From: Schmidtea polychroa
Taxonomy: Eukaryota
Assembly (NCBI GenBank): GCA_044892525.1
Contig: CM097887.1
Span: forward strand, 55,552,001-55,616,000
Reading direction: 5' to 3'
Length of the DNA stretch: 64,000 nt
The notes under the pieces were generated by a model. The model made no database searches, was not told the origin of the DNA, and saw nothing but the letters and a program-made list of their open reading frames with translations. Below, one piece after another: positions 11,455 to 64,000 of this stretch (position 1 is its first letter; every line of letters begins with the position of its first letter). Made by a program: the position numbers and the translations under genes.

Positions 11455-11459
11455 AAAAA

Positions 11460-15339: not shown

Positions 15340-15354
15340 TTTATTTATTAAAAA

Positions 15355-15991: not shown

Positions 15992-16006
15992 ATTGAGGGT
16001 ATAAAA

Positions 16007-17295: not shown

Positions 17296-17296
17296 A

Positions 17297-18043: not shown

Positions 18044-18078
18044 AAGTCATTCTGAAGGTCTATGTTTATCCTATAAAA

Positions 18079-19005: not shown

Positions 19006-19513
19006 AGTCATGAGGGTGAAAGAATATAAATCAGAGACTTTACATTGAAAGGACTTGCTTCGTCATTATAAAAAAATTAAAAAAAGATGGAATAATGGGA
19101 ATACAGCTTTAAAGATTATAGGTTACTCCTTGGGATTTATATCTGCAATACTTACAATTGTTTTGCCAATAACCCTACCGGCTATTACTCTTGCACCCGT
19201 AATCATTGGAAGTATTTCTGTAGCTGATTCTTTCTTGACTGAAATAGTTTCTTTATCCTATACTTCAAAAAAGAAAAGCTTATATCGTGAAGTTTGTCTG
19301 GCAATCGACTTGGGGATATCTAAATTATTTTTATTTCAGATGAAAGCCATGGAGGATGGAATCCTAACAGATGAGGAAATAATGAAATCAAATCAAATAA
19401 TCCAAGATATTAAAAATTAAGTTATAAAGTTGAAAACCACAAAGGTTAAAGCTGATAAATATTCTAACAAGGAATACCGAGAGAAATGGTTGAAGGAGAA
19501 GACTTCGACGTAG
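18911..19513 (+). pseudogene. Polinton two-TM-helix protein (putative membrane-active), with in-frame stops at 19046 and 19418
   Basis: YPKIEGL...RVKEYKSETLH*KDLLRHYKKIKKRW, then a hydrophobic hairpin, then SKLFLFQMKAMEDGILTDEEI. The frame stays open on both sides of ORF 19055-19420. Confidence 0.6.
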
Positions 19514-19537
19514 ACCTATATAATTTTTAAATTAAAA

Positions 19538-19738
19538 ATGAATTCCAGATTGAATGATTTTAGAAGTTTATCATTAGAGGATAAACTTAGAATAGGTGAA
19601 AAGTGTTACATCTTTTATCTTGTAAGAATTAAAGACCGTGATCTTTTAAATAAAATAACTAAATTTAAATATTTAAGCATACAAGACCAAATTGGAAGAG
19701 GAGAATACTATTTTGCTTTATTCCCTCAACTATTTTAA
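19538..19738 (+). CDS. Small hypothetical Polinton protein (66 aa)
   Basis: Has an AAAAATG start context like neighbouring ORFs. No recognised motif. Confidence 0.35.
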   Translation: MNSRLNDFRSLSLEDKLRIGEKCYIFYLVRIKDRDLLNKITKFKYLSIQDQIGRGEYYFALFPQLF

Positions 19739-19748
19739 TTTTTTAAAA

Positions 19749-20186
19749 ATGGATGGCTTTATAAAAAAAATTGAACAGCTTTCAATGATTGACCCTTTAA
19801 TTTTAAACAAGATTCAACAAAAAGAGAAGGCTTTTGAATTTGCAAGATTAAAGAGTTAAAACCCTAAAATGAATCAAAGTGAGATTTGTAAAATAATCGG
19901 GACTTCAGACTCGACGATGAGACGAATTAGAAAGGATTTAGGAATTGACTCTCCCTATAGGCATACAGGCAAGAAGAAAAAGACTAAAGAGACCAAGGGT
20001 TTTTATTGTAAGGATTGTTCAAGTACTGTACTTGATAAAAACCATCAATGCGTCAAGTCTAAAAAGTATCAAAGACAAAAGAAAGATCCTTTAGCCTCCG
20101 GGCCAGACCATTCTGAAGTCTCTACGACTGAAGATGTTGAAGATATTTTAGATCGAACTAGTATCATGTTTAAAAACTTTAAATAA
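19749..20186 (+). pseudogene. Helix-turn-helix protein with one in-frame TAA at 19857
   Basis: MDGFIKK...RLKS*NPKMNQSEICKIIGTSDSTMRRIRKDLG. The upstream ATG at 19749 is in frame with ORF 19869-20186. Confidence 0.6.
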
Positions 20187-20453
20187 ATGGACGAACGTGT
20201 TTTAAACTTGATAAAAAGTGATCCCATCATTAAAAAGGAATCAAGTATTGCATTAAAAGAATATAATGAGAAATCCCCAGAGGATAAAGCCCTGCAAGCC
20301 GCGCAACTTGCTATTCGAGAGCCTGTACTTCTCTGGATTATAAATGATTTAGAGATTCAGTTGATGAAAATCAATAAAGAGATTAAAACCAGAAAGACTT
20401 TAGCCAAGGCAAACCGAGAGAAAATAAAAGAGAAAATAGAAAAGAGGTTATAA
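20187..20453 (+). CDS. Small coiled-coil Polinton protein (88 aa)
   Basis: Abuts the preceding stop codon. Helical, Lys/Glu-rich. Confidence 0.4.
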   Translation: MDERVLNLIKSDPIIKKESSIALKEYNEKSPEDKALQAAQLAIREPVLLWIINDLEIQLMKINKEIKTRKTLAKANREKIKEKIEKRL

Positions 20454-20587
20454 CTATAAAAGTAAAAATTTTTATTATTGAAACAGATGGTCGATTCAAA
20501 CCTTTAATAATATCATTTAAAAATGTTTTGGATAAAAGGACTTTGTCATCTGTTAAAGACTTTAAGTTTTCAAAAATGGATCGCATT

Positions 20588-23500: not shown

Positions 23501-24638
23501 CTTCTTCTGTTGGGGCTTTATATTCTGCTTCTTCTAATATTAAAAGATCTATTTCACGGTTTTTATCTTGATCTAATAATTCTTTATTTGAAATGTAGAT
23601 TGGAATGATATGTTTCTTAAAACCATAATGTTTATGGTGAATATATTCATAAACATTAATTTTAACATTATTCAAGATTTCAAATGTTGGTATATCTTTA
23701 ATTTTCATTGTATGTTCAAAATCTTCTAGATATCTCAACTCATCCTCATAGGGTTTGTATTTTGATACTCTTTGAGGGTTTGTAGCTTGTGGATGTAAAT
23801 GTGCCAGGACTGCCCATTGAAAACATTTGTTATCACTATTTTCTACGTTTATAACACAGTTTGAACGAAAGGGTGTAGGGATGTATGATTTAGGACTTGG
23901 AGGTGCTGCTCTCCAATATTCTATTTGTATATTTTGAAATGAATGGAATCTTAAATCCGATTCCCCTAATTCTTGTTCTTGAGCTTCTTGAACTTCATGA
24001 ATCATATCATTAATAATTTTATTAATCCCTTTAGTTGAATGCAAATATTTATATGATGTTTCGATATAAGAGTCTAAAGGAACTGTATTTACATCTTCTC
24101 CTCTCCAATATCTAGCCAGGATTATAATTTTATATTTTATAATATTAAATCTCGATTTGCCAAATTTCTTTATAGCATCATCCATTGAATTTTTTATATT
24201 TTGTTTGTTTTTCTTTACATATTCCGAGGCTGATGAATCTTTAAATATTTCTTCAAATATATCTATATGATTAAAGTTGTCCCAATTATATTTTTCTTTT
24301 TCAATATGTTCAGGTTCTTCTTCTTCATAGACTTCTTCCTTATCGCTTTCTATATTCTCTATTGTACATTTTTTTAGATGTTTTATATAATAAGATTCTA
24401 TAGATGTTTTAAAATTACATATACCACATTCGAATTTTTTTCTAATTTTAGGAATACCAATACAATTTATAAAATGTCGATCGTATCCAGAAAGTAAAAA
24501 TCTTTCTTTACATTTAGTACAAATTTTTGAGTTGGTGTTATTTAGTTGGTTGGTTTTTAATAAATGAGCTTTTGATCTTTGATGAGATATTAATGCTGAT
24601 CTATTTTTAAAAGTTTTTTCACACGCTTCACAATTCAT
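20588..24638 (-). pseudogene. Protein-primed family B DNA polymerase (pPolB) with N-terminal Zn fingers; internal deletion/frameshift near 22800 and a TAG at 20978-80
   Basis: YIPTP...CVINVENSDNKCFQWAV; KGIYPYDY; YLSLDVYILADCFE; YVDATALYG (motif A); KLLNNAVFGK (motif B); MDTDS (motif C); ISLSNYDDKR. ORF 20588-20899 is in frame with 20978-22804 across a single TAG. Confidence 0.93.
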
Positions 24639-24691
24639 TTTTTAAAAATATTTTTTTATTGGAGTGGGGTGTTTTGAATTTTTAAAATATA

Positions 24692-24959
24692 TATTTATAA
24701 ATTAGCAAACTACGCTACTTGCTATATAGTAGTGTATAAACCTTGCACCCGATCCACAACTCCATTTTTAAGAGCTTCCCTTCCATAATTCAACACAAGA
24801 GGGTGGTTGTTTTTGAAAATATAGGGTGAAAAGGATGAAAAGACTTGAAAAAACTGTTAGATTTTTATATAAAAGTGTAATTTTTAAAGGTATGGAAAGG
24901 TATGGATTTGGTGATCTTTAAGGGGTGGGGGTGGTCGGGTGCAAGGTTTATACACTACT
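24692..24959 (-). repeat. Right Polinton TIR (268 bp)
   Basis: Inverted copy of 11187-11454. The pPolB ATG is at 24638, just inside. Confidence 0.95.
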
Positions 24960-27479
24960 TATGTGTCTTTCAAAATTATTATTATTCTTATAGTGTTGGG
25001 CTAGAACTGATTTCTAGACCCAAATTATAATTGTGACTGAAATGTGTAGGTACACAACATGCAAAAAAGCAAAAAGTATAGCTAAATATTAAAAACTACA
25101 CCAAATAAACAATGGTAATTAAAGGAGAAAGCAACAAAAAATAAACACAGAAATTAAATAAAATTATACAAAAGCAAGAAGTTATGCAAAATCTAACTCA
25201 AAAATAACCAAATAAACATAGAGTTACAAAAAACAAACTCGAATAACTTAAAAGATGGTAAAAACAGTAAAAAATTCAGAAAAACCCAGAACATTCCAAA
25301 AAATGGCGATGACCATCATAAAAGCTACCTTAAACAATAAAATTTAGGAAAAAATAAATAAATTAGTAATAAAAATAAAAAATATTAAAAAGAAATTCAT
25401 AAAACATCAATTAAAATAAAAATTAAATTAAAAGTAATATAGAATGTTCTGGAACCGTTCCAAATCCATCATGGACGTAAAATTAATGAAAAATAATTAA
25501 AAATTTAAAATTTAAAAATAAAAATAAATATTATGGCACAAAAATTGCCATTAAAAATATCAAAATCGCAAAATAGAAAATTCTGGAATAAAAAGAATTC
25601 GAGTTTGTTTTAATGCATCAATACATACACGTAAAATACCATTAAAATAGGTATATATACTGACACGTTTCAGTCACAATCAATCACTTTTATGCCAATA
25701 TTTTTGTTGACGAAAATTTTGCCGAAAAATTAATAGTAGGTATTTTTGATTGATATATGTTTTATCTATGATTAATCACGTATGTAATTATTTCAATTTA
25801 AACCATTTTTAATTAGAATATTGTTAAGATCTATTTTTTTTTACTTTTTAAATACGACTGATCAGCGACGTCTTAGTGCGTCTCTATTTAGTCCTACATT
25901 TGATGGTAATGAATTTTTCTAAAATGAAACATGCAGAATTGCACTATCATTAATATATATATATTTTTTTGTTCGGTCATCGGAGGTCGGCCACTTCATG
26001 GTTCTGCCATGGAGTTGTGTCGATAAAACCCTTCCGCTATGGCTCCAACTATTTATTTATCGGTCGACAGTGATGTTTCGAATCAATATTACAGTAGGGC
26101 TTGTCGTAGCGGTCACAGTGGGGCCGCGTAAGCAAGCATTCTTCCCAAGTTCGAAGGCAGTACACAATTAAACTCAACATTAAAAATCTCGTACAATAGT
26201 TTTACACTAAGGTCATAATTGAGTAGATCTCAGGCCCAAATTAAACACAGCAATTAGAATTCAATTAATGTAGTCGGTTAAGACCTCTCCACTTAGGCGT
26301 TTGTCGAACATCGTTAGTAAATAAAAATTTTTGTAAAGACGTAAGGATTTCTCTCGGATCTAATTATGATGATAGCATCTCGAAGTTCGACAAGCGTAAA
26401 GGATGGAATAGATTCAATTAAGTATAAAACCCCCAGCGAGTAGTATATATCTTTATCTCAGGATTAAAATGTAGTATTGCCAATACCCAAATCGATCAGG
26501 AGTTAGGGTCATATTATAGAAATAACTAACTTCTTTTATTTTTCCACTTATAAATCAATATGAATGAAGTGTTATTAGTTTAGAAAATGTAATATCATCA
26601 ATTATGAACTATTATCGATAAAATCTTTTCAATTTATAAAATAAAATGTTTGATGTGAATGTCTATTCAACTATAAAGTTATATTAGCAACTATAACATA
26701 GATATGCGTGATCCTAACTAACTATTCAATTCATCCCTCAATTAGGAATTACAATCGGGAAACTCGTATAAAATTGTAAATGATTTTATTGATAAATGAT
26801 AAATCATACTTGAGTTCATATACCAGGTCTAAACTAAAAGTCTTCCGCAATCAGTTAACTATGAGGGTATACTTGTTAGATTATATATAAAGCATGAATT
26901 AAAGATACACTCTGATCGTCAAACTACTAGATATATATTGGTTAAATTATAAAAAGTGATTATAATTATGTATATAATATAAGTCAAAATATGCTCTAAT
27001 CATTAAACCATAAGATAAGGATTAGTTAAATTAAAAATTATGACTATAAACTATGTATAAAATATAAACCAAAAATATACCAAACTATAAAGTACCTATC
27101 AGTTAAAAATATAACTACAAATTATTTATAAAAAAAGAAAAAATTTAAAAATTATAAAATAGAATTTGTATATAAAGTGTAAATCAAAAGTATTCTCTGA
27201 TTGTGAATTCTAAATTATATCATAAAATATAATCTTATGCTAATTTTGAAACCTGACTTATAAATATGAGAGGCTATGTATAGATTGTATATGTACGATG
27301 ATAATACAATATAAGCCCTAAACCCAAAATACGACATATAAATGGTAACTGTATCTCGATTATTAACTATAAATGATAAATAGTTATCTTAATTATAAAA
27401 AGTATAAATGATAAACGGTTATCTTAATTATAAAAATACAATCTAAAAATAATTATACATAAAATTTTAATTATAGAAA

Positions 27480-29286
27480 TGTTGGGCTAGAACCGAGAAT
27501 CGAGAGCTTGTTTTAATGAATCAAAAATACATAACAAAAAAATCGCACGAAGTTAAATTAAAACACTAATCAATACAAATTAAAGTACATAACACATTGA
27601 TGATAAATAAGACCCGGGTGAAAAAATAAAGGAATGAAAAAAAAGGTCGCAATCACTAACACAATTAGGAGAAACATCACATTCGGAATAGCTAACCACT
27701 AAGAAATAAAATAATAATAAATAAAATAATGGGTAATGAATTAATTAATAATATGGAAAATTTCTAAATAAATAAATTTAAAATTTAAAATAAATTATCT
27801 AGTAAACTGGAGAAATAATAAAAAATGTAGAATGAAAGTAGTAAAATTAGATAAACCATAAAATTTATAAAACTAAAACTAAAAATAAAACCAACAAATT
27901 ATTTAAATTATACAACTTATAAAACCAAATTGTTTAAATTAATGAAACTAAAGTAAAATTAACTGAACTTATTTAAATTACAAAACTTGTAAAACTAAAT
28001 TAAAATTAGCAAAAAACTATTTTGATTATAGAATTTATAAAAATAAATCTTAAAAGTTAATAAAAATTAGAATTTTGAATACCTAAATTAATTAAATTAA
28101 AAAACAATAATTGCACACATGCATGCATGCATGCAAAAATTAATCAGAATTGCCTCGCATTCTAATTGGATATAGTAGCAGAGAATGCGTAGGCGTACAA
28201 TTCAATCAGTATAAATACAGATTGAAATTTCAGTTGTTCAACTTGTTAAATTAGTTTTCAGTTTTACACAACAAATCGTTTGTCAGGTAACGAACATATG
28301 CTCTCAATTTTCGATTTTATGCCCTTGTGGATTGGACTGGTAATTTTATTTTAATGTGAAATTTTAGGTAATGTTTTAAGTTAAATAAATTTTATATTCA
28401 ATTTAGTTTAGTTTTTTTTATTATTGTTTAATTCCATTTAGTTTCAAGTTTGAAATAATAGTTTTTATTGAGTTTATTTATATTATTTGTTGATTGTGAA
28501 CGATAGTAACGTGGAGTTGAGGAACTTCATGTCATGACATGAGGTGCCTTCGGGAGCTCAGCCGGTGGACATGAGGTTCTTCAATCACGCAGCTGGATTG
28601 GGCCGAAATGTGGGGGCTTCCTCACGGGTCCTATCGCTGGAAGTACTTTGGCCAAACATAGGTTAGGACTGAGAATACAGGCAGATCCCTGCTCAAATTT
28701 TTTGAAGTACAATTTAAATATTATGGGAAGCGCGGATTAACTTGGAAATAAGGGCCAATCCCTGCTCAAATTTTTCAAAGGATAATTTAGATATTGTAGG
28801 AAGTGTAGAACAATAATTATTAGCTGGAAAATAAGGGCCAATCCCTGCTCAAATTTTTTTTTGCGAGAAAGTTTAAATATTCATAAATATCAAAAGAAAT
28901 ACCTAGCAACCTTTATTAATAGAAAAATAAGGGCGCATCCCTGCACAAAATTTTGAAAAGAAAACAATAGAAAACAACTAGAAATGAAGACCATAACCGA
29001 ATGAGATAGAAAAGTAAAAATAGAAAATGATCAATGACGTAAGACCTTCTATCGGCCGTCTAGAACCCGAAGAGAAAATACAATGGGGAGTAGTTTTAGC
29101 AATAGAGCTCACCTGCTCATTGTTTTTTCGCCTTTGTGTACAGTACCAACATGGTCGTCGCCATGGGTACACAAATGGTTAAATTGCAATAGTCATGGAG
29201 GTGCTTAGGAAAGAGTCGAGTGAATATATATGATTACCCCTAATGCATTTAAAAATTTAAAATGACACACCCCTAAGTAACCAACA
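27480..29286 (+). mobile_element. Element C: 1.8-kb solo-LTR-like relative nested in the AT array of A
   Basis: GAAA|TGTTGG...CCAACA|GAAA, with perfect 6-bp inverted termini and a 4-bp TSD. Removing it restores the array unit. Confidence 0.85.
28675..28955 (+). repeat. Four dispersed direct repeats (AAATAAGGGCCA)ATCCCTGCTCAAATTTT in element C
   Basis: TCCCTG cores at 28686, 28759, 28842 and 28938. Confidence 0.8.
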
Positions 29287-31466
29287 GAAATATAATTTAT
29301 AAATAGTTATATATAACTCTGAATTTAAAATATAAAGTATAAATACTCATTGGAAATTATTAAAATATAATCTATAAAGAATCATACCTAAAATTTTGTA
29401 AGAATATAATTTATCAATAGTTATGTGCAAATCCGAGTTTAAAAATATAACGTATAAATGGTTATATGTAAATTATCAATGTATCTTAATTATAAAATAC
29501 GATCTACAAATGATTATACATAAAATTTTGGCTATGAAAATATAATTTCTAAATAGTTATGTATAAATTTGGATTTAAGAATATAAATTATAAATAGTTA
29601 CATATAATCATATATATACATGGACCTTAAAAATATAAACTATAAATAGTTAGGAATAAATTTTACTTACAAAAATATAAATTATAAATAATTATGTAAA
29701 AATTTTGATTATAAAATATAAAGTATAAATAGTTATATATAAATTATATACGGATATTGATCATAAAAACATAATCTATAAATAGTTACGAATAAATTTT
29801 ACGTACAAAATATAAATTATAAATGATTATATATAAATTTTGATTACGGAATATAAAATATAAATAGTTGGTTATAAATTATATAGGTATATGGATGGTT
29901 ACGGATTAATTTTACGTACAAAAATATCAACTATAGACGATTATATATAAATTTGGATTATAAAAATATAATTTATGACTAGTAATATATAAATTATAAA
30001 TGTAGTGTGTCTATAAACCCTAATTATAAACAGTCATATATAACCTCTGATCTTAAAAAACACGAATTCTGGATAGTTATTTAGAGTTACTAATGCAACT
30101 AGATTATAAGAGAAAAACCAGGGATAATTATATATATAAATTATGTATGGATCTGGATTATCGAGATTGAAATTCTAAATAGTATTATAAAATTATGTGT
30201 AAGAATGCAAATTACAAGTTTGTATTTTGACTAGAACCTAAATTATAAATACCTAAACTATGAACTGTATTTCTCTCCAAGATATAATTCATGATTACTT
30301 ATATTATATGAACTACCTCTACCGATTAAGGATAAATTATAATCCATAAATGAGTGCTGTTCCTGAAACGCAAAAAAATTTTTTTTCAAGGATATCACTG
30401 TATGCTAGCTGAACCTTACAAAATAAGTATTGGCATTTGCTATGATTAAGATCATCACTAGCACTGTTATTCCTATCTCTATCGCTCCCCATAATTACCG
30501 TTATCCTGAATATCATCATAATTCCCCTTACTGCATTACAAATTAGTTACAATAATTGTTAGCATAAAATCAGATTTGTACCACAAAATTTAGCTTACCT
30601 TGAAAAATGGGAAATTGCATATCCAAGCATTTAGTGTACGAACATAGAAGTAAAATCCCAACTAAAACACGCAGCCATGAGTAGGCTTCTTTGGGAGGAA
30701 ACCAGCAGGGTGAACGCTACCGATGCGAACTCGGCATTGGAATTTCATGAAAGCTGGGCATAAATCCACGATTTCAGGTAAGTTAAGGGGCATTTTTGAT
30801 TACAATATCACCGTAGCATTGAAATTGATATTCGTCCGGAAATGGACCAAACAACCTAAAATTCGTATAAAACGGTCACACTGAATATGACAACCCGGTC
30901 TAAGTGAGGATGAGGTGGGAAACTAAGCTCCAACAGCTCACCCAGCACCAACGGGGCTGGTTGATTCAGTAGTTAAATAATTAGCATAAAATAAAATATT
31001 ATGTCGATGACATAACAAACATTAAAAATAAACCATAGAATTTTCAATAATTAGGTTAGATAAACAAAGTGCAAATTTTTTTTTAAAAATATAAAAGTTG
31101 ATTTGCTGAATTAACACGGTCAAATAGAATTAGATCTTCAGAAATTAATTTTTGTTATTTTTTTTTATTTAACTGTGAATTTGGTAGAGTATTTGCGGTA
31201 CTGATTTAACAGTGGAAAAAGAAAATTTTTAATTTATAAATTACATAACGGATTAATAACCGAGATTTAAATCAATATACGCTCAATTTAGCAAAATCCA
31301 TAATTCCCCCACAATCTATAACGCGGATTATGATAAGACGATCCACAAATGGACCCACTCATCATTTTTGCGACTTAGTCGAATGGATAGACCATAGAAA
31401 CGAAATTCCGAACATACCAAAAATTGATACTAATATCTCCTTTAATTGGGCTTATTTAATAGCAGA

Positions 31467-31829
31467 ATGTCTCAAACAAGTGGACCCGACGAAGTGGAAT
31501 ACAGGCAGATGATCACGCGGCTCCGGACCCGGTACATCTGGTACCGGATCCACGATTGGAATCGGGGGTTGGACCTGGATAATTATGGTCCGGTCATTCG
31601 AAGTGGCCCAGAGCCCGACGCCCCGGCGTGGGTGAAAACAGAGCCCACCAACAATGTGTTACGAGAAGCCCGCGATCGAGCGGCCATCGAGGTAGAAGTG
31701 GCCCAGATGCGGCTGAGGAGACTCGAACTCCAGCTCAGAGCCGAAGCAGAGGGAGTAACCCCCGAGGAGCTGGAGGAGGCAGATACCCCTCCACGAAAAC
31801 GAGGGAGGCCCCGGAAGAACCCGGCCTAA
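31467..31829 (+). CDS. Element ORF1: 120-aa protein with a coiled coil and a C-terminal AT-hook
   Basis: The ATG at 31467 aligns with the ATG at 61584. C-terminus PRKRGRPRK. Paralogous to 61584-61949. Confidence 0.8.
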   Translation: MSQTSGPDEVEYRQMITRLRTRYIWYRIHDWNRGLDLDNYGPVIRSGPEPDAPAWVKTEPTNNVLREARDRAAIEVEVAQMRLRRLELQLRAEAEGVTPEELEEADTPPRKRGRPRKNPA

Positions 31830-32062
31830 CTTATCGGTAGTGATAATTCGGACGAAACTATTTGATTGATATACTTTAGCGATACTGTGTTGCGTTTGAT
31901 ATTTTGTGGTTTTTGTAGCAATTATGACGAATTGTAGAAATTTTTATTATTAAAACTTTTACATTATAGTTTGTCGTGCGTATTCATCGTGTAATAAATC
32001 ATCTTTTAGTCATTACATAGAAGTCTTTTCAGCTTTTTAACTATTTTTCAGGAACCATTAAA

Positions 32063-33699
32063 ATGTCGAAGGATCTCCGAATAGCATGCTGGGATTGTAT
32101 TTGCTCCAATATTCGAGATATAAGCCAAAGTACTTATACATATGCTGACAAGCTTATCTCTGGAAGTTTTGTCATTGAAAACTTGGTCCGAGAACAGCAT
32201 ATAGACTTCCTAGATGCATTCGAAGCAGCCATAAAAATATGGCAATCTAACGTAAATTATAATCAGAATTACCTTTCCTTTATGAATAATGATTCGTTAG
32301 AAAAACATGCTTTTTTTAATAAAAATGTTAATTTTAAAGAAAAATTTAAAGAAAATGTTAATTATAATAAAAACCCTAATAATTTTAAAAAAACCTTAAA
32401 AAAAATTAATATAAGTAATGAAAATTTTATTAAAAAACAAGTTATTAAAAATAAAAACGTGAAAACCCTTGATATTAAAAACGTGAAAAATTTACAATTT
32501 TTTGAAAAGAAGCATGTTAATTATTTCCTTAATGATTGTAGAAAATTTTATAAAAATAAAAAAGCTAGAAATAAAAAACGAAAAAAATTAAAGAAAAAAC
32601 AAATTCAGAATAATTTGTTTAAATTTTCCTCAAAAACCAGATCCGATGACAACGATAAAAATTTTTTTCGTCCTCCTTCGGAGGATAACAGATACCACTA
32701 AAAAACCTCTGTATGCTAAACCAAAACAAACCATCAAATTATGGAACCCCAAATCATCTATCTATATAAATTTACCAAGACCACACTACGCTTGTCCTAT
32801 TCCAATTAAACCACTTAATAATCAAGAAATCTTTAATCGTAGGAAATGTAAAATTAAACATAATATGCGTTTTGAATACCTCATAACAAATGCGGAACCA
32901 ATTTGGTCAGAAGCCATCATCAGCAATACCAATGAACCAGATGCTAAAATATCCAATCATAATGACTTAGATGAAAATAACATCAACCCTATAGAAGATA
33001 GCCGGATAAAAAATGACTCTTATTTAACAGCTTATCTAACAGCTAAAAAAATAATAACTCCAGCATAATTAATACTGATAATACCAAACTAATACCGGAA
33101 ACTTCTGACGATAGCACTATAGAAAATGACTCTTATTTAACAGCTTATCTAACAGCTAAAAAGAATACATCCAAAGTAACCACTGTAAACCAAGTTAATA
33201 CTGATAATAACAAATTAATTCCCCAAACCTCAGAACTAGATAACTTTTTTCTAAATTAATAAACACTATTCTAAGGAATGGTGGCAATGATAGCATAATT
33301 GAAAATGAAAATAATAGTGACAAAAACATCTACCTATTAGAAGATAGCTCTATTGAAAGGGACTCTTATCTAAAAATAGGGCAATCTAACAATGGATATG
33401 CCTTACCTATAATAAATAACTACAGAGGAAGCTTTAGTTTTTCGGATATAGGTAGAATGAAACTGCGCGTTTTAAACAGAGATAGCACAAGTGAAAATAA
33501 AAATGATAGTGACGATTGTATAACCAAACCAGAAAATGATAAAGATGACGAATATGAAACTCATTTAGAATCCGATGCCAATAAAGTTAAAATGATACCA
33601 AAATTAAAAGAAACTCCAAAAAATAATATATCGCCAAATGCTCATAAAAAAAACCCTATCAAAGCTAATAACAAAAAGAAGAAGGGAAAACGTCATTAA
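32063..33699 (+). pseudogene. Cargo ORF unique to element A: Lys/Asn-rich, frameshifted, internally repeated
   Basis: ORFs 32063-32701, 32646-33068 and 33457-33699 lie in tandem. NDSYLTAYLTAKK is repeated at ~33015 and ~33125. Absent from element B. Confidence 0.45.
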
Positions 33700-34337
33700 G
33701 AGTGTATATTATCAATAGGTCAATGTAGGAGTCCTTGTATGGGCTCCGCCTAACTGATAATACCTTTTTAGTAGTTAATATTTGTAATATAAAATCTTTC
33801 CTTTAAAACCACCTTACCTTAAAACACCATTCCTTCCAATCCATACTATAATATATTGTATAATATCTGACGGCTACAAAAATCGCAAATGGAGTCTTCT
33901 TACTCCGAAGTATTAAATTCATTTAGATATGTATGGACACGGAATGCTTGCTGATAGAATACTTTATGGAGAACCGCGTTTGATGCCAGAATTCGAGGAC
34001 TGATACTGTGAAAGAAAGAACTAAGCCAACGCTTGCTGATTGGTGATAAAATACTTAGAAAAAACCACGTTTGATGCCAGAGTTCCTAACTCCAGCATCC
34101 AAAGAGAATACACATAAAAATTTCAGTTTATTTAAGGGTGAGAACCGTTCTCCCCTTCGGCCTTGTGCCAGTTCGATTTACATAAAATAAAATTTGATTT
34201 TTTTTTTATTGCGTATGGGGTGTCTCCAGGGACGAGATGACCCTCCCTATCCTTCATCTATTAATTCATGCAATTAATCGAATCACTTTTACGCATATGG
34301 AAGCTAGTTATGGAACTTCATTATTATCTTCATTTAG

Positions 34338-34777
34338 TGTACAAATTCCTCGAAAATCTACGAAAAGACCGCGAACAGGCCCAGCAACAAGCCGAAGACC
34401 TTCGAAGTCGAGTCGAGAAGCTCAAAACCAAGTGCCGAGAACTCGAAGGTACTTGGTTCAGTCCAGCTGAGATGAAGAAACGGACAACACACATCTCACA
34501 ACTCCAGACCCAAGCGGAGCAGGATCAACTCGAAATCCGAGCGTTGAAGCTACAAGTACGCTCGCTCGAGAGCAAACTGAACGAAAAGTTCATCCAGAAC
34601 GCTCTCCGAGAGCAGATTCGTCCACTTCCGGTGGAGCTGGCCAAGATATACCCACCTGCCCAGGCAAGCAAGCCGAAACGTAAGCGGCTAGGGCGGAATA
34701 CCCGGGAAAAATTGAAAAGGGCCTGGCTGGCCGAGCAAGAAAAAGCGAAAGAGCCTGAAGCCACTCCACAATCCTGA
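34338..34777 (+). CDS. Element ORF2: coiled-coil protein with a basic C-terminal patch, probably entered through a splice acceptor
   Basis: ENLRKDREQAQQQAEDLRSRVEKLK...WFSP...EIRALKLQVRSLE...KPKRKRLGRN. Similarity to B begins exactly after AG at 34336-37. Confidence 0.75.
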
Positions 34778-36516
34778 GGAATATTTGAGAATGCGACCCC
34801 TCCTGAGTAAAACAGACCTTGTAATATAGTAGTGGATAAACAAATGATTCTTGTTGTCTAATGAATATGTGATCAAACTTTGTGATTGTCCAGAACCAGA
34901 CAGTCGGCAGAAAGGCGTTTGGGAAAACAATCTCGATAAGGGACCGAAATAAATCGGACACGTGCCTTCTATCGGCGTCCGTGAACCCATAGAGTGCTCG
35001 ACAATTATAGTGCTCGACAATTATAGTGCTCTTAACGCGCTCACTTTTTGCGAGTACTCAACCCCTTGGTACAGTACCAACGTTGATTGCTCAACGGGTA
35101 CCAAGAGGAAAACAAGGTTGTATTCTGGGTTACGCTGGTAACAGCACTTAAACATTCAACCACCTGTAACCCACCAATAGCATATGTTTTGAAATCAAGA
35201 TTATAATTTCAAATACTAATTATAATTTTAAATACTAATTAAGATTATTTATTTTGTAATTCTAAATAATAATTAGTCCCCGTAATATATTTTATTTTAA
35301 TGTACATGAACATCGAAACATGAAATAATATTCCAAAAAATTAATAAGATGCACAGTAATAATAATTGTCAAAAGCATAAACTAATGTACGTAGAACATA
35401 AGTCAATAATCGAATTCCAATGATAATCGTCACTGTTTTGACTTGTCCGGCTTTGGTTATCTGGGTTCCATGTAGATATTGACTCTGAACTTGTTGATAC
35501 CCGTTCTATAGTAGTGGGTCAGTTCGAATTCTTCAATTCTCCTTCCTCTGTCATCCAACATTACTTTAATAAAAAGAGCATATTTGTGCGACAAAAGTCA
35601 TAGAAAATTGTTTGAAAATTTATTTTATTAAAAGTTTTATGTACAAATATGAGCTTTGGGGTCTCAAAAAATACCCCGCAACCTCTACTAACCGTGAATA
35701 TATTAGTTTTAAACGAATTTTCCCATAATTATAATTAAAAAATAATAGTCGTATTATGTTAGGACTAATGTGGTAATCTTCATTTTGTGTTTAATCTTGC
35801 ACAAAAATGTCAAACATTCGAAAGGTCCTAAGACGGCTTCTGTTTTTCATTGATATTTCTTAGTGGAGAACCTAGTCTTATATTGTAACCAATATTTTAA
35901 TTTATTTTAATAATATATTTTAAATAATCGTGAAATGAATAATATTCAATAATTAAAGACTTTCTTAAATGCAAATTATTTTGTCAATCTTTGCTATGTT
36001 AGCGTTTGGAATTTGATATGTTTTATTGTGCATTTTAATTACTTTTCGATACCTCATTTTGCGATATTTAATATGTTTTCACAGATTTTTACTGAACTTT
36101 GTGTTCTAGCATACATATATTATAACAACTTTTTTCAATTTATACCACCGATTTCTTTTTATTTGACTGTATTTATTAAAAACTTGACTATGAATTATTA
36201 AATATATCGATTTTTTTATATTCTCGAATTTCGGCACTACCTTTTTCAAATGATATGTATAATTAGCACCTTTGATTCTGTTCCTACATAATTTTAACTT
36301 TTACTCAAATGAATGCTTTGAAAAATATTCTACAATTTTGCAATAATTGTGTTTAAACATTTAACATTTTTTCTACTGTACAATATAAAAACATGTAAAA
36401 ATATATAGCATAAGTCAGAGACGAATATTTTAAACAATCAATTTTTTATAAGTATAATATATCAATTAAACTTTAACTATTAATTCTTTTGTTTAAATAA
36501 TATTCAGTTTTCAGCT

Positions 36517-38657: not shown

Positions 38658-40720
38658 TGTTTGGCTAGAACTGATTTCTAAACTCATATCTTAGAATAGT
38701 GACGGAATATGCCGGTACACAACATACATACCTAGCTTTAAGTTTAATTAAATTTAAATATATAAAACACCGAATAAACAATAATAATAAGGAGAACAAC
38801 ACACAAAACTTAAAACATCCAACTAATAAATTAAAACACAGCAAGAAGTATTGCACAAAAATTTATTCAAATATCCGAGAAACATAAAACAATAAAAACA
38901 AATTCGAATAAAGGCAAATAATAAAAAGAAAAAAGAAAAATTTCATAAAAACCTTATGTAAAGAAAATTATATAAAAGTTTTTGAATAATAATTAGAACA
39001 ATCCAAAAAATGGCGAAATACATCATGGCCGTCAAACGACCTAATAAAATTTATAAAAAATAAATATTTTAGTTTAAAATAGAAAAATTTTCGAAAAGAA
39101 TTCACAAAAAAAACATTCCATGTTAAATTTTCAGGGGTTTTCATTATTATATTCCCATGTTTTCATTCTTATATTCCCATGAAATTGATATTATTTAAAT
39201 TCATGACAAAATATATTTAATCAGGTGAATATACAAATAATAGGTTATTCTTTCTTAAATATATAAATCGTTGAAACCAGAATTATTCAATCAAAATCTT
39301 AAAAACTTAATTAATTTTATAAATGGAGAGGAAAACAAGAAAAACTGTAACTCGAGAATTATTTGATTTGGTTTGCACTTTATATGCAACATATCGACAT
39401 AGTATAGCTGAGATCAGCAGAATAGTAAGTCTAGAGAGAAAGACTGTCGGGAAAATAATAAGACAGCACGAAAATAATGAACCTTTTGTTCCTGCTGCAT
39501 AGTGAAGGTCTAACACAATCTTTAGCAAAAACAACAATTTCGCAGAAGTAGAACAGACCATTTTCAACTCTTTTGCTATCGAAAATTCGCATATTCAAAA
39601 CGAGGTCAAAAATATCATTCAAGAAAGACATAATGTGACTATAGGCTTGCCTAAAATCAGTTGAAGAATCAGAAAAATAGGATTGAGTAGAAAGAGGTTG
39701 ATGCTCTAGCAATTTATGCATCTCAAATATCCAGAATAAACAATGAAAATATAATTTTTTTGGATGAAACTAGATTTAATCAACATTCACATAGATATTA
39801 TGGTTATTCTGCTGAAAATGTTAAAGCATATGTGCAAGTGCGGGCCAATAAAGGCACTAATATAAGTTTAATGTGTGCTGTTGGGTATGAAGGTGTGATA
39901 GCATATGAATATAAAACTGGTGCATATAACTCAGAAAGTTTTATAAACTATATTAATGAGAAGCTATCGCCATATTTTAGAAGGTATCCTCATAAAATTT
40001 TGGTTATGGACAATGCGAGAATTCACAAATCTTCGACCGTATTGCGAACTTTTTCGGATTTGCAAATACTAATAAAATATCTTGTGCCTTATTCACCAGA
40101 ACTTAACCCAATAGAAGAATTTTTTTCTATGATTAAATCACGTTTTCATGGTTTACAATTAAATAACACAGAAAAAACAATCGAAGTGTGTTTAGATGAT
40201 CTATTAACAGCAGGAACGGATTATTCTAATCAATGCGAGGGTTTTTATCTGAATATGCGTAGGTGGCTAGATAAAGCTTTAAGAAGAGAAATGTTTATAT
40301 AAATAAATATTTATACGCTTTATTTTTGTTTATAAATTGTTTTGATAGTTTCTTATTTATATAAATATTTAAATATATGTTAACATTTATTTATTTTTAT
40401 GGGAATATAATAATGAAAACATGGGAATATAAGAATGAAAACATGTGTAATCTATCTCTAATGCCTATATCCAAATTTAATAAAAAATAATTCAAAAATA
40501 AAATTTTGAAAAATAAAACAAAAATTATTACTTTAAAATCGCCATCAAAATTGATAAAAATTAAGAATCGAATGTTCTAGAATTAAAATAATTCGAGTTT
40601 GTTTTACTGCATCATTGTACACACACTTACTTGCACACCAACAATAGGGTATATATGCCGACACATTTTATTCACAAGTTACTCTTTTATGCCAAAGTTC
40701 TTTTCTAATTTGATCAACTG
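38658..40720 (+). repeat. Fragment E: 5' part of a TGTTGG-family element, interrupted by a Tc1-like transposon
   Basis: Starts TGTTTGGCTAGAACTGATTTCTA. Contains AAAAAATGGCG...CATCAT. Resumes after 40449 with AAAATCGCCATC and AATTCGAGTTTGTTTT. Confidence 0.7.
39138..40449 (+). mobile_element. Tc1/IS630-like DD34E transposon, decayed (transposase remnant 39323-40302)
   Basis: An N-terminal HTH remnant precedes FLDET...VMDNARIHK...PYSPELNPIEE, with 34 residues between D and E. Inverted ends are built from 22-bp TTTTCATT(A/C)TTATATTCCCATG units. The right end is followed by TA. Confidence 0.85.
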
Positions 40721-56933: not shown

Positions 56934-59214
56934 TGATTCATTCTACCATTCTAAACTTGGGAAAATTGAGAATATTCTGGTAAATTGTAATCGTAAAGTT
57001 TCATTGGCATTTCGTAAACTCTGACAGCTGTCGAGATATATGTATTTTATACAATCCAGCATCTCGGATTTCCCATGACATTTCCGCTCTCTTTCTTGAA
57101 AAAGCCATCGAGATAACAAGCCAATCCAAATTTTGTTTTGCTTCTATGCACTTGTAATTAATAATGGCCTTCTTTCATTTAATCGCCTGTTTTTATTGAT
57201 TTTCTTCTATACTCTTCTCATTTTTCAATAATTCATAGTTTCTCCACAATATTAATAATATTGTCTAGAAAAGATACTCTTTTTACAATACTCTTTAGGA
57301 ATTTAAAGAACATAAGAAAGGTATTTCCAAAATATAACTGCCTTTTTTGGTACACCTTTAATTGATTTAATCAACTAACTCTAAAACCATTCTTTACTCG
57401 TTGAAATATTTTAAAATAAATCTATCCTAAATTTTATATTCAAACAAATTGGTTTCTAAGTCTTTTATGGTTTCAAAACAAAATAATTAAATTATGCAAA
57501 CAACAAAATAATTAAGCATACTTTATAACCAAAGATTCTGTTTAGCTAATTTGATTTTAATTAAGTACAAAAATTAATTAAAAATTGACATTTGATTGTA
57601 AGTAGTGTTTCCAAATTACCGGAATTACAATTACCTGGGTATTCGAGTAGTAATTTTTCAAACTATCCGGGTAATTTTAAAAATTCATATAAATTTGTAA
57701 AAACTATATTAAAAAATCTGGAAATAATAAATTACAAAACAAATATGAAAATAAATTACTATAGTGTTGGGCTAGAACTGATTTCTAGACCCAAACTTCT
57801 AATTATGACCGAAATATGTAGGTACACAACATGCAAAAGGCAAAAAGTATAGCTAAATATTAAAAACTACACCAAATAAACAATAATGATTAAAAGAGAA
57901 ACAACAAAAAATATAAACACGGAAATTAAATAAAATTATACAAAAGCAAGAAGTTATGCAAAATCTAACTCAAAAATAACCAAATAAACATAGAATTACA
58001 AAAAACAAACTCGAATAACTTAAAAAACGGTAAAAATAGAAAAAAATTCCAGAAAAACCCAGAACATTCCATAAAAATGGCGATGACCATCACAAAAGTC
58101 ATCTAGAACAACAAAAGTTAGAGAAAATAAATAAATTAGTATTAAAAATAAAAAATCTTAAAAAGAAATTCATAAAGCATCAGTTAAAATAAAAATAAAA
58201 TTAACATGGAATGTTCTGGAACCGTTCCAAATCCATCATGGACGTCAAATTAATGAAAAATAATTAAAAAATAAAAATTTAAAAATAAAAACAAATATTA
58301 TGGCACAAAAATTGCCATTAAAAATATCAAAATCGCGAAATAGAAAATTCTGGAATAAAAAGAATTCGAGTTTGTTTTAATGCATCAATACATACACGTA
58401 AAATACCATTAAAATAGGTATATATACTGACACGTTTCGGTCACAATTAAATCACTTTATTTTTGTCGACGAATTTTTTCGAGAAACCAATAGTAGGTAT
58501 TTTTTTTTGATTGATGTAATTCTATGTTACATATGTTAATCATTTATGTAATTATTTTAATGTAAGCTATTTCTTATTTAAAATGTCCTCAAGATCTAAT
58601 TTTTGTCTATTTAAGTACGACTGATCAGCGGCGTCTTAGTGCGTCTCTATTCAGTCCTGCATTTGATTATAATAATTTATCTTATGAAACACGCATACAT
58701 GCATTATTATTATTTATAGAACTTTTGTTGTTCGGGTCAGCCGGAGGTCGAACTACTTCATGGTCCTGCCATGAAGTTGGGTCGAGGAAATCCTCCGCCT
58801 GACTCTCCTTATTTATTAAAGGTCAGCCGTAAATGGTTGACTTAGCATACAACATTAAGGTTTGTCGAAGTGGTCACAGTGGGGCCATGGAAGCAATATT
58901 CTTCCCGACTCAATGCACACATAGTCAAACTCAACATTTAAAATCAGCCCAACAAAAATACCCTAAGGTTGATAAATTGAGTAGATCTCATACCTAACTT
59001 AATGACAATTTTGCAAGTTACATTCAATTTAGACGGTTAAAGTATCAATCTCAAAGCATAATATCAATTTCCAAGTATAATCTTAATCATACTATATAAC
59101 TTAAGTGGGGTATAATCGAAAAGTTGACCGCTCATACAGTTTGAAAAGGCAAAGGATGGAAATGCCCTACTCCCAAGACAGTTTTTACCCGTATGTTATT
59201 CTTAAAGATGTGAT

Positions 59215-60720
59215 GCGTAAAATGCACTGCCTCCAACCTATCAACTATAATCATTTACTAAGTGGAAAATTGTAATTTATACCACCCTATCAACTATAAT
59301 CATTTAATAAGTGGAGAATTATAATTTATATAACCAAAATTACAATATGTGATCACTTTCAAATTCCGAAATGTAATTCATCAACATATAGCTATAGAGT
59401 ATTTCTAAGTCCTCGAGTTGAAAATATAATTTATCAATCCATGATGGTAAACGATAATTATTTATCAGACGTAAAAGTATAATTTATAAATATTTAGTTT
59501 ATCGTTTTAAGTCCGAAAATATAATTTACGAACCTCTAATTATAACGTATAAATGGCTTTCCGATGTTAAAAACATAATTTATAATCTCGTAATTATATC
59601 ATATGATCAATTTTAAATTCAGAAATAATTTATAACCATGTAAATATAAAGTCTAGCCGAGCGTTGATATAACTTATAAAATCCATAATTATAAATTCTA
59701 GTTATTTACCTAACGTAGAAATATAAATTCTAAAACCCAATGATTACCAAATAAATCCTTTTGAAGTTCGAAAATATAGTCATAGACATCTAATTAAGAA
59801 ACGTAATTGGTTTTCAAAGTTAAAAATATCATTTATAAATTTATAACTATAAGCATAACCATGTATTACGGGTAAAATATAATTCATTTATAAGGTATCA
59901 GTAAACTATGAGTTAAAATAAATTGTATAAGTCTACAACTATAATTATTTTCAAGTATAAAAGATATAATTTATTCAAAAAACATAATCAAAGTTCACTG
60001 CTGGAATTATAATTTACATATGACCATAACCATAACCAGATATCAAGAAAAAATGCAACTTATATTATCCGCTATAAAGTACCAATACATTTCGAGTTGA
60101 AAGCATAATTTAGAAGTGTAAAAAAGATAACTTATTATCAAGTATAATCTAAAGTTACCGTTAGGATTATAACTTATACATAAATATAATCCATAATTCA
60201 TAACCATATATTAAGTATACAATGTAACTTATAATTATTCACTATAAAATACAAATAACTTTCGAGCTGAAAACCTAATTTAGAAGTGTAAAAAATATAA
60301 CTTATTCATAAAGGATAGTCTAAGTTTACCGTTAGAATCATAACCTATACATGAATATAAGCTATAACTACATCGCGAGTAGAAATTGTAATTTATAATT
60401 GCTCACTATAAAATAAATTCCAAGCTAAAACCGTTTATAAGTGCAAGGAATATATTCTAGTCATATAGCACAATTAAGTTGACAGGTTAAGATTATAATT
60501 CATAAAATTATAACTATAAAATATAACGATGTATTAAGTATAAATACAATTGGTAATTTTCCCACTATAACGTACGAGCAAAAATTCGAGTTAAACATAG
60601 CTTAGATATGACTATAAATTGCAATTATTTTCAAGTTCGGAGACATAATTAATTAATTTTAAGTTGGAATATAATTTATAGCAGTATACCCACCATACTA
60701 TAGTAGAACTACTCAATGTG
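59215..60720. repeat. Degenerate ~43-54-bp AT-rich tandem array in element B
   Basis: Recurrent (G)AAAATATAATTTAT. A 49-bp duplication at ~59233-59330 and a ~171-bp duplication at ~60088/60259. Confidence 0.7.
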
Positions 60721-61583
60721 ATTTATAAGTGGAACTACCACGAACCCCCTAATATGCTAGTTTAACTTTGAGACACGTGCCCTATAATCGTTATTAATCG
60801 TAAATGCCATCATTATGACCACTGTTGTTGCTTTTGACCTAGAAGGGTGAATTTTAAACTAAAACTCGAATTACAATATATCTTAAATTCACTTACCATA
60901 AGGAGATCTCTCTGTTCAATCATTTTTCGTATTAACCAGCATCGAAATCTTCAGAAATGTCGAGGAGCCAGTAACAGATAGGGTGATTATTCTTCTGGGA
61001 TAGGGTTGATGGAGTAGTTTTCTAAAAAACGAGGAGAAGCAAAGTATAAAAAGCAGATCAGGCTATTATGAACAGCTTCGCTGACGAAGAGACATTGGAT
61101 TGCGACTCAACGATGAGTCCCTCCGTCGACGAAGTCTTCCTTTGAAGCCAATAGGGTTAATAAATAATTAGAAAATCTGAATTAGACATTTAAAATTTTT
61201 GAATAATTTTCTGTATTGTAAATAATTGATTAATGGTTTTGAACCATTAAAACAATCGAATTTAATTCTTAATCCAAACCAATGGAAAACCAAATTGACA
61301 GGCCGAACACTATAGGGAATATAGATAAACCCCAAACGAAAATACAATTTTGGATAATTTCCTTTTGGTTGGGTTGTTGGCTTGTTTGGAGGTTAGGCTC
61401 CTGAATCACCACCGAGTTAGGTATCAACAGATTGTGCCTGTGATGAAATAAAGGTGATGTTAAAGCCCCTTAGGTGAGTTCCCTGGTTACGGATTGCTAA
61501 TGGAAATTTAATCTTAAGTCTATAGTCTAGACATTTTTCACCGCATAATAATCAACAGACTTATATTTTGGGTAATCATAGAT

Positions 61584-61949
61584 ATGTCACAATCAAGCAG
61601 TCATAGTGAAGAGGAGGACCACAGGCAAATGATCACACGGCTCCGTACACGGTACGTCTGGCACCACATCCACCGGTGGAACCAGGGACGAGACCTGGAT
61701 TGCACAAATCGAGTGATCAGGAAGGGCCCCGAAGTAGATGCCCCGGCGTGGGTGAAGGAGGAGCCGGAAAACGATCTTTTGCAAGAGGCCCGTGACCGAG
61801 CGGCCGTCGAGGTGGACGCAGCCCAGGTGCGACTGAGAAAGCTCGACCTGCAAATCCGGGCAAACCGAGAAGGAAAGGCTTTGGAGGACCTGGAGGAGGC
61901 CGAGGCGACCCCGCGAAAAAGGGGGAGGCCTCGCAAGTACCTGGCCTAA
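61584..61949 (+). CDS. Element ORF1 (copy B): 121-aa coiled-coil + AT-hook protein
   Basis: RQMITRLRTRY.W..I..WN.G.DLD...APAWVK.EP...EARDRAA.EV...PRKRGRPRK is shared with 31467-31829. Confidence 0.8.
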   Translation: MSQSSSHSEEEDHRQMITRLRTRYVWHHIHRWNQGRDLDCTNRVIRKGPEVDAPAWVKEEPENDLLQEARDRAAVEVDAAQVRLRKLDLQIRANREGKALEDLEEAEATPRKRGRPRKYLA

Positions 61950-62214
61950 CTCATTCCCAATTCTAACTCACGATGGACATGTAGCCTGATTTATGTGATG
62001 ATGATCCTCACTTGAATAAATTCCCTCTTTACTAGATTAATAAATTTGATTTGATGATGAACTTTACTTCGAACAAATTGCCTCTTTAATAAATTATCGC
62101 AAAACGATTTGATTCATCATAATGATAAAATGTCTTTATAATCAGTACTGACCTTATTATATAATCGACCGAATCTCATGGTGTAATGACATAATCTAAG
62201 CATATTCCTTTCAG

Positions 62215-62645
62215 TGTTCAAACTGTTTGAGAACCTACGGAAAGACCGAGAAGAAGCACAAAAACAGGCCGAGGATCTCCGAGCCCGAGTGGACAAACTC
62301 AAGGGACGGTGCCGGGAACTAGAAAACACCTGGTTTAGTCCCGAGGATATGAAGAAGAAGGTGGCGCAGGTCCTCCAACTGCAAACCTAAGCGGCACAGG
62401 ATCAGATGGAGATCCGGGCCTTGAAGCTCCAACTCCGTGCGTTAGAAACCGAACGCAATGAACAAGTGGTTCATGGAGCCGCAATAAGTCAAATCCGGCC
62501 GTTGACCGTGGAGTTGGCAGCAATGTATCCTCCGGCCGCGAAAGACAAACCCAAAAGGAAGCGGCTGGGACGGAACATCCAGGAAAAATTGAAGAAAGCT
62601 AGACTGGCCGAGTATGAACGCCAAGAATGGTCGACGTCCACGTAA
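62215..62645 (+). pseudogene. Element ORF2 (copy B): coiled-coil protein with one nonsense codon (CAA>TAA at 62388)
   Basis: ENLRKDREEAQKQAEDLRARVDKLK...WFSP...LQT*AAQDQMEIRALKLQLRALE...KPKRKRLGRN aligns without gaps to copy A. Confidence 0.8.
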
Positions 62646-64000
62646 TCTCCGCAATATGAACAGTTATTTAGGCTATACGCCTTGAATTTTCTTTTGTTAT
62701 TGTTATGGGTAAATACATTTGCGTTAGAGTATTGTATGAGGTATGTTGTTCGCAAATATTGAGTGATTGAGAATGAGTGTGTTGAGATTTTGGGAAAACA
62801 ATCTCGATAAGGGACCGAAAGAAATCGGACACATACCTTCTATCGGTAGTCCGTGAACCCATAGAGTACTCGACAATTATAGTGCCTCGATGCGCTCACT
62901 TTTTGCGAGTACTCAACCCTTGGTTCAGTACCAACGTTGATTACTCAACAGGTGCCAAGTGGAAAGAAAATGTTGTATTCTGGGTTACGCTGGTAACAGC
63001 ACTGAATAACAAACACCTGACCACCTGTAACCCACCAATAGTTATTCTTTATTAAAGAAATATTTAAAAAAACTAGTGCATTTAATGTTGCAGGACTCAT
63101 TCTGTTTCTAAGTTTATTGCAAAATATCCCAGCAATAGAAAATATACGTTCCGATGCAGTAGATGTTGGTTTCACCGTCAGTAAGGCTTGATATAATTTC
63201 ATATAATCTCTCTGTTCAAGATCCATTATTTGCTTCTAATAGCTTTAACTCTTTCTCAACTGTTAGTGTAACACTATTTTCAGGAGTTTGATTTGTGAAC
63301 TTAGCAATACATTTTTGAAATACTAAATATTCACTACCTGTATCTAAATATTCGTCGGATTGTAATTTTAGTCTATCTAATTCATTAGTATTGCTTAGAA
63401 ACAAACGTACGATTAACGAAGCTGCCAATTGCTTGATTACAGCTTTCGAGGCGCAGCAAAAGAATTCGTTAAATATTGGGTACACTCCATTGTGCAATAG
63501 CATTAACAATGACGTCAAATCCTTATTTCTGCGTTGGTCAACACGTATTTTTAACGAATTTTTCAACTCCTCTGCTGAAGGTGTTACTTTTACTTATCAC
63601 TTATTTAATGGCTTAAAGTTTGTATACACAAAAAATTTAAATGACAAAAGGAAAATTAAATTTTAAATAGTTTTTACATATACATTATAGCAACCACCCA
63701 CAAAGCCTACTTATATAAAATTAATAGAAATAAACTTATTTTATTATAAATTCATATTCAAACCAATTGGGATGGCTAATAGCACCGTCTGCAAGAGTAT
63801 TGTATTGTAAGTGATAGAAATTATGAACAATTTCAAATGAGAAATATGATGTGAAAATTATTTGAACATCAATAATTTGTTATCCGGATATCCGATTCAA
63901 TTACCTGGGTAATAAAATACTCGAAAAAACACTCAAATTATCGGGTACCCGAATTGGAAATACTAATTGCAAGGATTGCAAATAATGAGATATATATAAT

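Follow-up and report, generated by a model that had tools for sequence, protein, structure and literature searches.

An AT-hook open reading frame in the LTRs of Burro1-like planarian retroelements: almost certainly the second exon of a spliced, selected gene

Background

What does a short open reading frame that ends in an AT-hook motif do inside a planarian repeat, and is it a gene at all? We met this question in a 64,000-nucleotide stretch of the Schmidtea polychroa genome (hereafter, "the window"), which carries two diverged copies of the frame, ORF1:

31467..31829, + strand: ORF1, 120 aa, ATG to TAA; predicted N-terminal helix, linker, long heptad helix, acidic helix and AT-hook
61584..61949, + strand: ORF1 of copy 2, 121 aa, ATG to TAA, intact

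A preliminary description, made by eye, took the frame for a selected, element-encoded DNA-binding factor that could bind an AT-rich array of its own element, much as VANC proteins do in VANDAL transposons, or serve as an integration or chromatin tether. The ORF check bears out its two intact copies of 120 and 121 aa, and its amino-acid identity of about 60% becomes 64% in a global alignment (78/121) and 66% in a local one (73/110). Both copies were said to end in PRKRGRPRK after an acidic stretch; the motif is present, but three residues come after it.

Solo LTRs are usually regarded as inert remnants or bare promoters, and planarian retroelements are under PIWI control in somatic cells. Silencing in planarians acts through SMEDWI-2 and H3K9me3 (PMC8532177).

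Results

Both copies lie in solo LTRs of giant gypsy elements

Each window copy of ORF1 sits in a solo LTR that belongs to a giant gypsy element of Burro1/GYPSM1-like type and is flanked by a 4-bp target duplication:

24994..35176, + strand: solo LTR copy 1, Burro1/GYPSM1-like, with TGTTGG...ACCA ends and target duplication ATAG
57765..63037, + strand: solo LTR copy 2, another subfamily, 5.3 kb, with TATA at 58419, donor at 58493 and acceptors at 61581 and 62214
34918..35176, + strand: conserved terminal block of the LTR, 84% identical between copies, adjoining the primer-binding site in full elements
27480..29285, + strand: nested 1.8-kb solo LTR of a related family, with TGTTGG...CCAACA ends and target duplication GAAA
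32028..34205, no strand assigned: later 2.18-kb insertion in the ORF1-ORF2 spacer, unclassified, which the nearest relative lacks

Once the two later insertions are subtracted, copy 1 measures about 6.2 kb and matches both LTRs of full-length elements. The DNA around the two frames had been described as unalignable, which is true of the flanks right beside ORF1 but not of the enclosing repeats: on the 5' side of ORF1, 24989-26281 aligns with 57760-59040 (1.3 kb), and on the 3' side 34918-35180 aligns with 62789-63041 (0.26 kb), both at 84%.

The genome from which the window comes has 781 Mb, with four contigs of 93-272 Mb. A search of it with ORF1 turned up 2,768 first-look candidates, and 150 of these were scored; with the copy-2 ORF1 as query, the 150 scored matches lay in other subfamilies. 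Several matches are paired about 31 kb apart. We picked four full-length LTR pairs for this spacing (30.6-31.1 kb apart in 4/4), and in all four of the resulting elements, which are about 36 kb long, the ORF1 region is found in both LTRs (5.2-5.6 kb). ORF1 is thus element-encoded, as the preliminary description held.

In the one element annotated with Pfam, a long frame carries a CCHC zinc knuckle, MATH, viral fusion glycoprotein, protease, RT, RNase H, integrase and ankyrin domains, so that an env-type fusion glycoprotein stands between gag and pol in a single polyprotein frame. Accessory ORFs of the same element have RING (PF13920), TRAF/MATH and BIR (PF00653) domains. BCL2-like, ubiquitin-like and dUTPase-like motifs gave no Pfam match at E 0.001; the source paper for the element, PMC6431247, used HHpred instead. 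Because the pairing, the polyprotein order and the accessory domains match the description in PMC6431247, we assign the element as Burro1/GYPSM1-like.

Several other features of these elements and of the window were recorded. Among 87 LTR flanks, the target-site 4-mer is ATAT in 17 and ATAG in 6, a bias toward alternating AT. The nested LTR (27480-29285) has terminal motifs in common with the large LTR, as well as its own TATA-like box (28209) and a CAG^GTAACG donor (caret, splice site) at a similar position, and holds no ORF of 90 aa or more. Within the insertion at 32028-34205 are low-complexity ORFs at 32063-32701 and 32646-33068, the first without a Pfam match. At 38658-38953 and 40473-40695 are older fragments that resemble the LTR 5' end at about 70-75%. 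A Polinton/adintovirus-like element with 269-bp inverted ends occupies 11188-24958, ending about 35 bp from LTR copy 1; it encodes a double-jelly-roll capsid, an integrase with a phospholipase A2-like domain and polB, and shows a weak A32 ATPase match with a 435-bp duplication. At 54071-55291, a single-exon ORF of 406 aa is intact and encodes a lipase-like domain (PF24708) at the C-terminus.

ORF1 and ORF2 as alternative second exons of an LTR transcription unit

Upstream and downstream of ORF1, the LTR carries the parts of a spliced transcription unit:

25652..25659, + strand: TATA box of a putative LTR-internal promoter, about 650 nt into the LTR in 18/24 stretches
25680..25735, + strand: non-coding leader exon, its 5' end placed by TATA spacing and its 3' end by intron-less copies
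25736..31465, + strand: GT-AG intron with donor and acceptor consensus, containing the AT array
34338..34777, + strand: ORF2, the alternative second exon, encoding a helical protein whose tail is rich in Arg and Lys; ATG made by the splice (A^TG)
62215..62645, + strand: ORF2 of copy 2, broken by an in-frame stop

The two ORF2 copies are 67% identical. Introns are 2.1-3.9 kb long in the 22 other LTRs measured; that of copy 1 is longer because of the nested LTR, which splits its AT-rich part. The donor reads A^GT(A/G)(A/G)G, with A at -1 in 22/23 LTRs, and lies 80-100 nt after the TATA box (counted in the 23 of 30 stretches that have both landmarks). On the acceptor side, a YAG ends 1-2 nt before the ORF1 ATG in 48/49 distinct upstream contexts, against 5.6% of background positions, and the varying distance between acceptor and ATG means that the upstream exon is non-coding for ORF1. 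ORF2 starts as YAG^TG in 65/69 loci (the other 5 of the 74 loci have no ORF2 match in the flank), and its coding conservation begins at the first codon. Taken together, the donor and both acceptors predict that one leader is joined to either ORF, the ORF2 start codon being formed by the join.

LTRs that lack the intron in exactly this way are present in the genome. We found them by gapped patterns, for which reversed-pattern controls returned zero; as the patterns are exact, the count is a lower bound. There is one leader-ORF1 event and there are two leader-ORF2 events. The leader is joined to ORF1 in a 2,242-nt solo LTR (L111; an unplaced contig repeats this insertion as L112), whose nearest relatives have YAG^AA-ATG in 12/12 and the donor in 6/6; this is the one independent leader-ORF1 join found. 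In the second event, both 1,561-nt LTRs of one element (L113 and L114), differing by one base, have the leader's final A fused to the TG of ORF2. The third, also leader-ORF2, is a truncated copy in another subfamily (L133). The ORF2 start codon, then, does not exist in genomic DNA and is made by the splice join.

Could these joins have arisen otherwise? Donor and acceptor do have a few letters in common, but microhomology deletion was rejected as the origin of the joins, for the copies lack the G that a deletion between those repeated letters would retain. Spliced-leader trans-splicing was likewise rejected, because the genomic joins carry the LTR's own leader; a flatworm spliced leader that ends in AUG would moreover set ORF2 out of frame. 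Intron-less copies require spliced RNA, and the unit must therefore have been transcribed and spliced in cells that pass on their DNA. This bears on a point on which the preliminary description had staked its reading, namely that the frame is transcribed. RNA-like contig runs showed no leader junction, and since the coverage of the best run tracked that of a DNA-like control, we do not count such runs as evidence. One poly(A)-like loose end was seen at 25677, which may reflect internal priming.

We conclude with near certainty that ORF1 is a real, spliced gene, the second exon of a transcription unit within the LTR. The TATA box probably acts as the LTR promoter, and ORF1 protein is presumably made. 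The preliminary description was right that the frame is element-encoded and selected, but missed its location in the LTR, its status as a second exon and the leader that it has in common with ORF2.

Among the internal accessory ORFs of the element, an AG lies 0-3 nt 5' of the ATG in 7/7 checked, and most spacers contain AATAAA. This arrangement suggests a one-leader, many-cassettes design in which the LTR leader may also feed the internal accessory ORFs. A genomic join of the leader to the internal RING ORF, the one of the seven internal ORFs for which it was sought, was not found.

ORF1 has been under purifying selection

The 74 loci analyzed yielded 61 distinct intact coding sequences, the other 13 being duplicates, with stops, or without ATG. 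A dN/dS analysis over copies had been proposed as a check on ORF1. For the window pair it gives 0.19 (bootstrap 0.09-0.34) at dS 1.3, with 30, 22 and 60 differences at codon positions 1, 2 and 3. Over all pairs, which are mutually non-independent and come from best-scoring matches biased toward intact copies, the ratio is 0.18-0.23 at dS >0.2 (58 saturated pairs excluded), 0.34 at dS 0.05-0.2 and 0.85 at dS <0.05; private changes within close groups give 0.55 (14 synonymous, 23 non-synonymous). A ratio near 0.2 between subfamilies and 0.85 in the youngest pairs is the pattern of selection during copying followed by drift after insertion, and ORF1 has been under purifying selection while the element copied itself. 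For ORF2, the comparison is saturated (pS 0.77, pN 0.22).

These values decide against the view that ORF1 is a non-functional open frame merely carried in the repeat. The near-neutral ratio of the youngest copies (0.85) and the stops in some copies would suit that view, but a dN/dS of about 0.2 between subfamilies, the conserved start, stop and splice signals and the exact spliced copies make it almost certainly wrong. It is refuted for the ORF1 lineage, while single copies may be dead.

A protein without detectable relatives that ends in an AT-hook

AlphaFold2 on 22 sequences (mean pLDDT 70, pTM 0.31) predicts three helices (9-32, 63-95 and 99-105), with a tail that lacks structure. Two parts of the protein are of particular interest:

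31653..31751, + strand: predicted long helix, aa 63-95, candidate coiled coil (AlphaFold pLDDT 73-89; column conservation)
31791..31817, + strand: AT-hook motif PRKRGRPRK, aa 109-117 (motif conservation)

Heptad positions conserved in the long helix are L65, A72, V76, A79, L83, L86 and L90. The N-terminal helix is rich in Arg and aromatics, contains Trp and, together with the GPE.DAP.WVK linker, is as invariant as the AT-hook motif. The structure prediction and fold search that had been suggested as a check thus yielded helices but no fold match at E 0.001 in PDB or BFVD. No homologues were found among near-length proteins, longer proteins or PDB sequences, nor by a 22-sequence profile against 1.84 billion representatives, in libraries that may lack planarian repeat ORFs. 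Matches to DUF5551 and DUF5448 fell below cut-off and were rejected.

RKRGRPRK is intact in 60/74 copies. Over 26 subfamily representatives, the motif is conserved as P26 R25 K26 R26 G23 R26 P26 R24 K26, with codons that change synonymously, and it has the GRP core, K/R flanks and proximal P of the AT-hook definition in section 4 of PMC11354804. Against the Pfam AT_hook model (PF02178), the window ORF1 scores 12.2 bits, under the gathering cut-off of 17.4; among family members, 17/22 give a match with E no higher than 1, the best being 0.0055. The identification of an RGRP AT-hook core, made at first by eye, has held up across subfamilies although the score is under the Pfam cut-off.

A CDK-type S/T-P site precedes the hook (residues 107-111) in 59/74 copies, which hints at cell-cycle control of the candidate DNA binding.

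The basic tail might instead be mainly a nuclear localisation signal, with the Trp-containing helix and the coiled coil of ORF1 serving to engage a host factor. The invariance of the N-terminal helix and GPE.DAP.WVK linker, equal to that of the hook, fits such a role, as do the RING, TRAF/MATH and BIR domains of the element's other accessory ORFs, to which ORF1 would then be comparable, and the sub-threshold Pfam score. Yet the hook has kept its G and P between lineages with dS above 1, which would be more than a nuclear signal needs, and the motif fits the HMGA-type core (PMC11354804 section 4). We regard this explanation as improbable.

Also quite unlikely, in our judgment, is that ORF1 serves as a chromatin tether or architectural protein like LEDGF/p75 or HMGA, guiding the integration complex to AT-rich DNA or bending host chromatin with no array preference. 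LEDGF tethers integrase by AT-hooks, and the S/T-P site found in 59/74 copies has its like in HMGA (PMC11354804). ORF1 lies outside the polyprotein, however, which leaves its packaging unexplained. The lean of target sites to alternating AT (ATAT, 17/87 flanks) could be a tether's doing, but short AT-alternating sites are typical of gypsy integrases themselves.

An AT-rich array in the ORF1 intron

The array that the preliminary description had assigned to the element is indeed its own and maps inside ORF1's own intron:

29289..30004, + strand: AT-rich tandem array, candidate binding site, 135-bp period with 41-42-bp subunits

It is 85% AT, against 71% for the window, and contains AA[ATG]TATAA 18 times, where shuffled sequence averages 3.0. 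All 23 introns examined have tandem repeats by TRF, their periods ranging between 3 and 318 bp, and in 22/23 the motif count lies above all 100 dinucleotide shuffles. As the motif was chosen from the same sequences, this enrichment shows shared content, not function; the motif is also TATA-like and one-stranded, and so may work as RNA or be the site of a host factor. The intron-less elements lack the array and each occurs at one site only, an observation that with n=3 proves little.

GC-richer blocks at the intron start (25850-26280) and the LTR end (34918-35176) are about 84% alike between subfamilies, above the coding parts, and are candidate RNA signals.

An RNA role for ORF1 itself deserves weighing here: alone or with ORF2, it could bind unspliced RNA and regulate its retention, export or packaging, like Rev, Rex and Rem. 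The LTR must retain a 2-4-kb spliceable intron: 2,768 first-look candidates stand against 3 intron-less events, a lower bound. Over its first 600 nt, the intron is about 84% alike between copies. A one-stranded array motif and an Arg- and aromatic-rich N-terminal helix would likewise suit RNA binding, of which AT-hooks are capable (PMC11354804). On the other hand, ORF2 with its Arg/Lys-rich tail suits the Rev role at least equally, and the hook's G and P are kept, as for minor-groove insertion. On balance, we find an RNA-regulator role unlikely.

Discussion

We tentatively favor, at somewhat less than even confidence, a reading in which ORF1 works in the nucleus as an oligomer, attaches by its AT-hooks to the arrays of the introns and supports the activity of the LTR promoter. 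As the product of a selected LTR accessory gene, it would likely enter the nucleus and oligomerise through its predicted long helix; the clustered AT-hooks of the oligomer would contact the motif-bearing AT-rich arrays of the ORF1 intron, and array-bound ORF1 would keep the LTR promoter active. We infer its oligomerisation, DNA binding, array preference and the sign of its effect (activation rather than repression). Two considerations argue against array binding. There is a single hook per chain, with little sequence preference, in a window of 71% AT, and one AT-hook alone cannot pick the array out of such sequence. The hook is also invariant while the arrays diverge, unlike the co-evolution of VANC with its targets.

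Each intact solo LTR holds the whole unit, and solo LTRs could therefore supply ORF1 protein in trans. Burro1 RNA occurs in the planarian gut and becomes more abundant when SMEDWI-2 is lost (PMC8532177), so a counter-silencing factor would have something to oppose. In its most far-reaching form, which we offer as speculation and think rather unlikely, the 5-kb Burro LTR would be a self-contained regulatory locus with a promoter, a leader, two alternatively spliced proteins and an array bound by multimeric ORF1 to counter silencing directed by piRNAs; a chromatin protein acting in trans across the planarian genome, an animal retroelement counterpart of VANC, would go on being made from hundreds to thousands of solo LTRs.

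Rather than a remnant or bare promoter, each intact solo LTR here has a complete spliced gene, encoding a protein with no detectable relative, and the unit is present in at least several hundred genomic copies in a regeneration model. Intron-less copies yield exact splice junctions with no need of RNA data, and they correct the annotation of ORF2. If ORF1 binds its own array, it would be a rare animal example of a retroelement counter-silencing factor. The element family is already known, and the LTR splice evidence appears to be new: we found no description in the literature of Burro LTR genes, an intron or an AT-hook protein, though Grohme 2018 and Jurka 2007 may already mark these ORFs. The main text of PMC13524379 names neither Burro nor Schmidtea.

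Among known systems, the closest in overall build is Burro1/GYPSM1 of Schmidtea mediterranea, which according to section 7 of PMC6431247 is likewise about 36 kb long: its internal region measures 25.5 kb, its single polyprotein has the same set of domains and places env between gag and pol, and RING and BIR accessory ORFs are present; LTR genes, an intron or an AT-hook protein do not figure in that section. Like accessory genes of complex retroviruses, ORF1 has a spliced RNA with a short leader, as the exact intron-less genomic copies show. MMTV, with sag and rem, also encodes an accessory protein (Sag) in its LTR, and its Mtv proviruses include genomic copies without an intron that derive from spliced RNA (PMC11998498). 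As described there, however, Sag is a membrane superantigen, whereas the ORF1 product looks nuclear, and it is in the present element that the LTR by itself contains promoter, leader, intron and both alternative second exons. Springer-clade insect ERVs, with their spliced env, have a start codon split by an intron (AU^G, compared with A^TG in ORF2), but there the spliced gene is the env of the internal region rather than an LTR gene (PMC12992720). HMGA-type proteins and LEDGF/p75 have the same GRP core with K/R and P flanks, often preceded by S/T-P, and differ in carrying two or three hooks per chain against one in ORF1 (PMC11354804); the ORF1 hook follows a predicted coiled coil, with no further homology to these proteins.

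VANC of VANDAL is likewise an element-encoded accessory protein beside fast-turning tandem arrays that also lie in its own intron (PMC5735166). It differs in belonging to a Mutator DNA transposon, in its DUF1985/DUF287 domains, in sequence-specific binding and in the loss of DNA methylation that it brings about (PMC5735166). ORF1 has no Pfam match to DUF1985 or DUF287, and its host is an LTR retroelement. The position of the array in the gene's own intron agrees with the likeness to VANC drawn by the preliminary description; the domain and the kind of host do not. We use VANC as a working analogy for ORF1 and not as a family to which it belongs: the arrays of varied period in ORF1 introns have a motif in common, recalling the VANDAL arrays that lie, and turn over, in VANC introns (PMC5735166 section 9).
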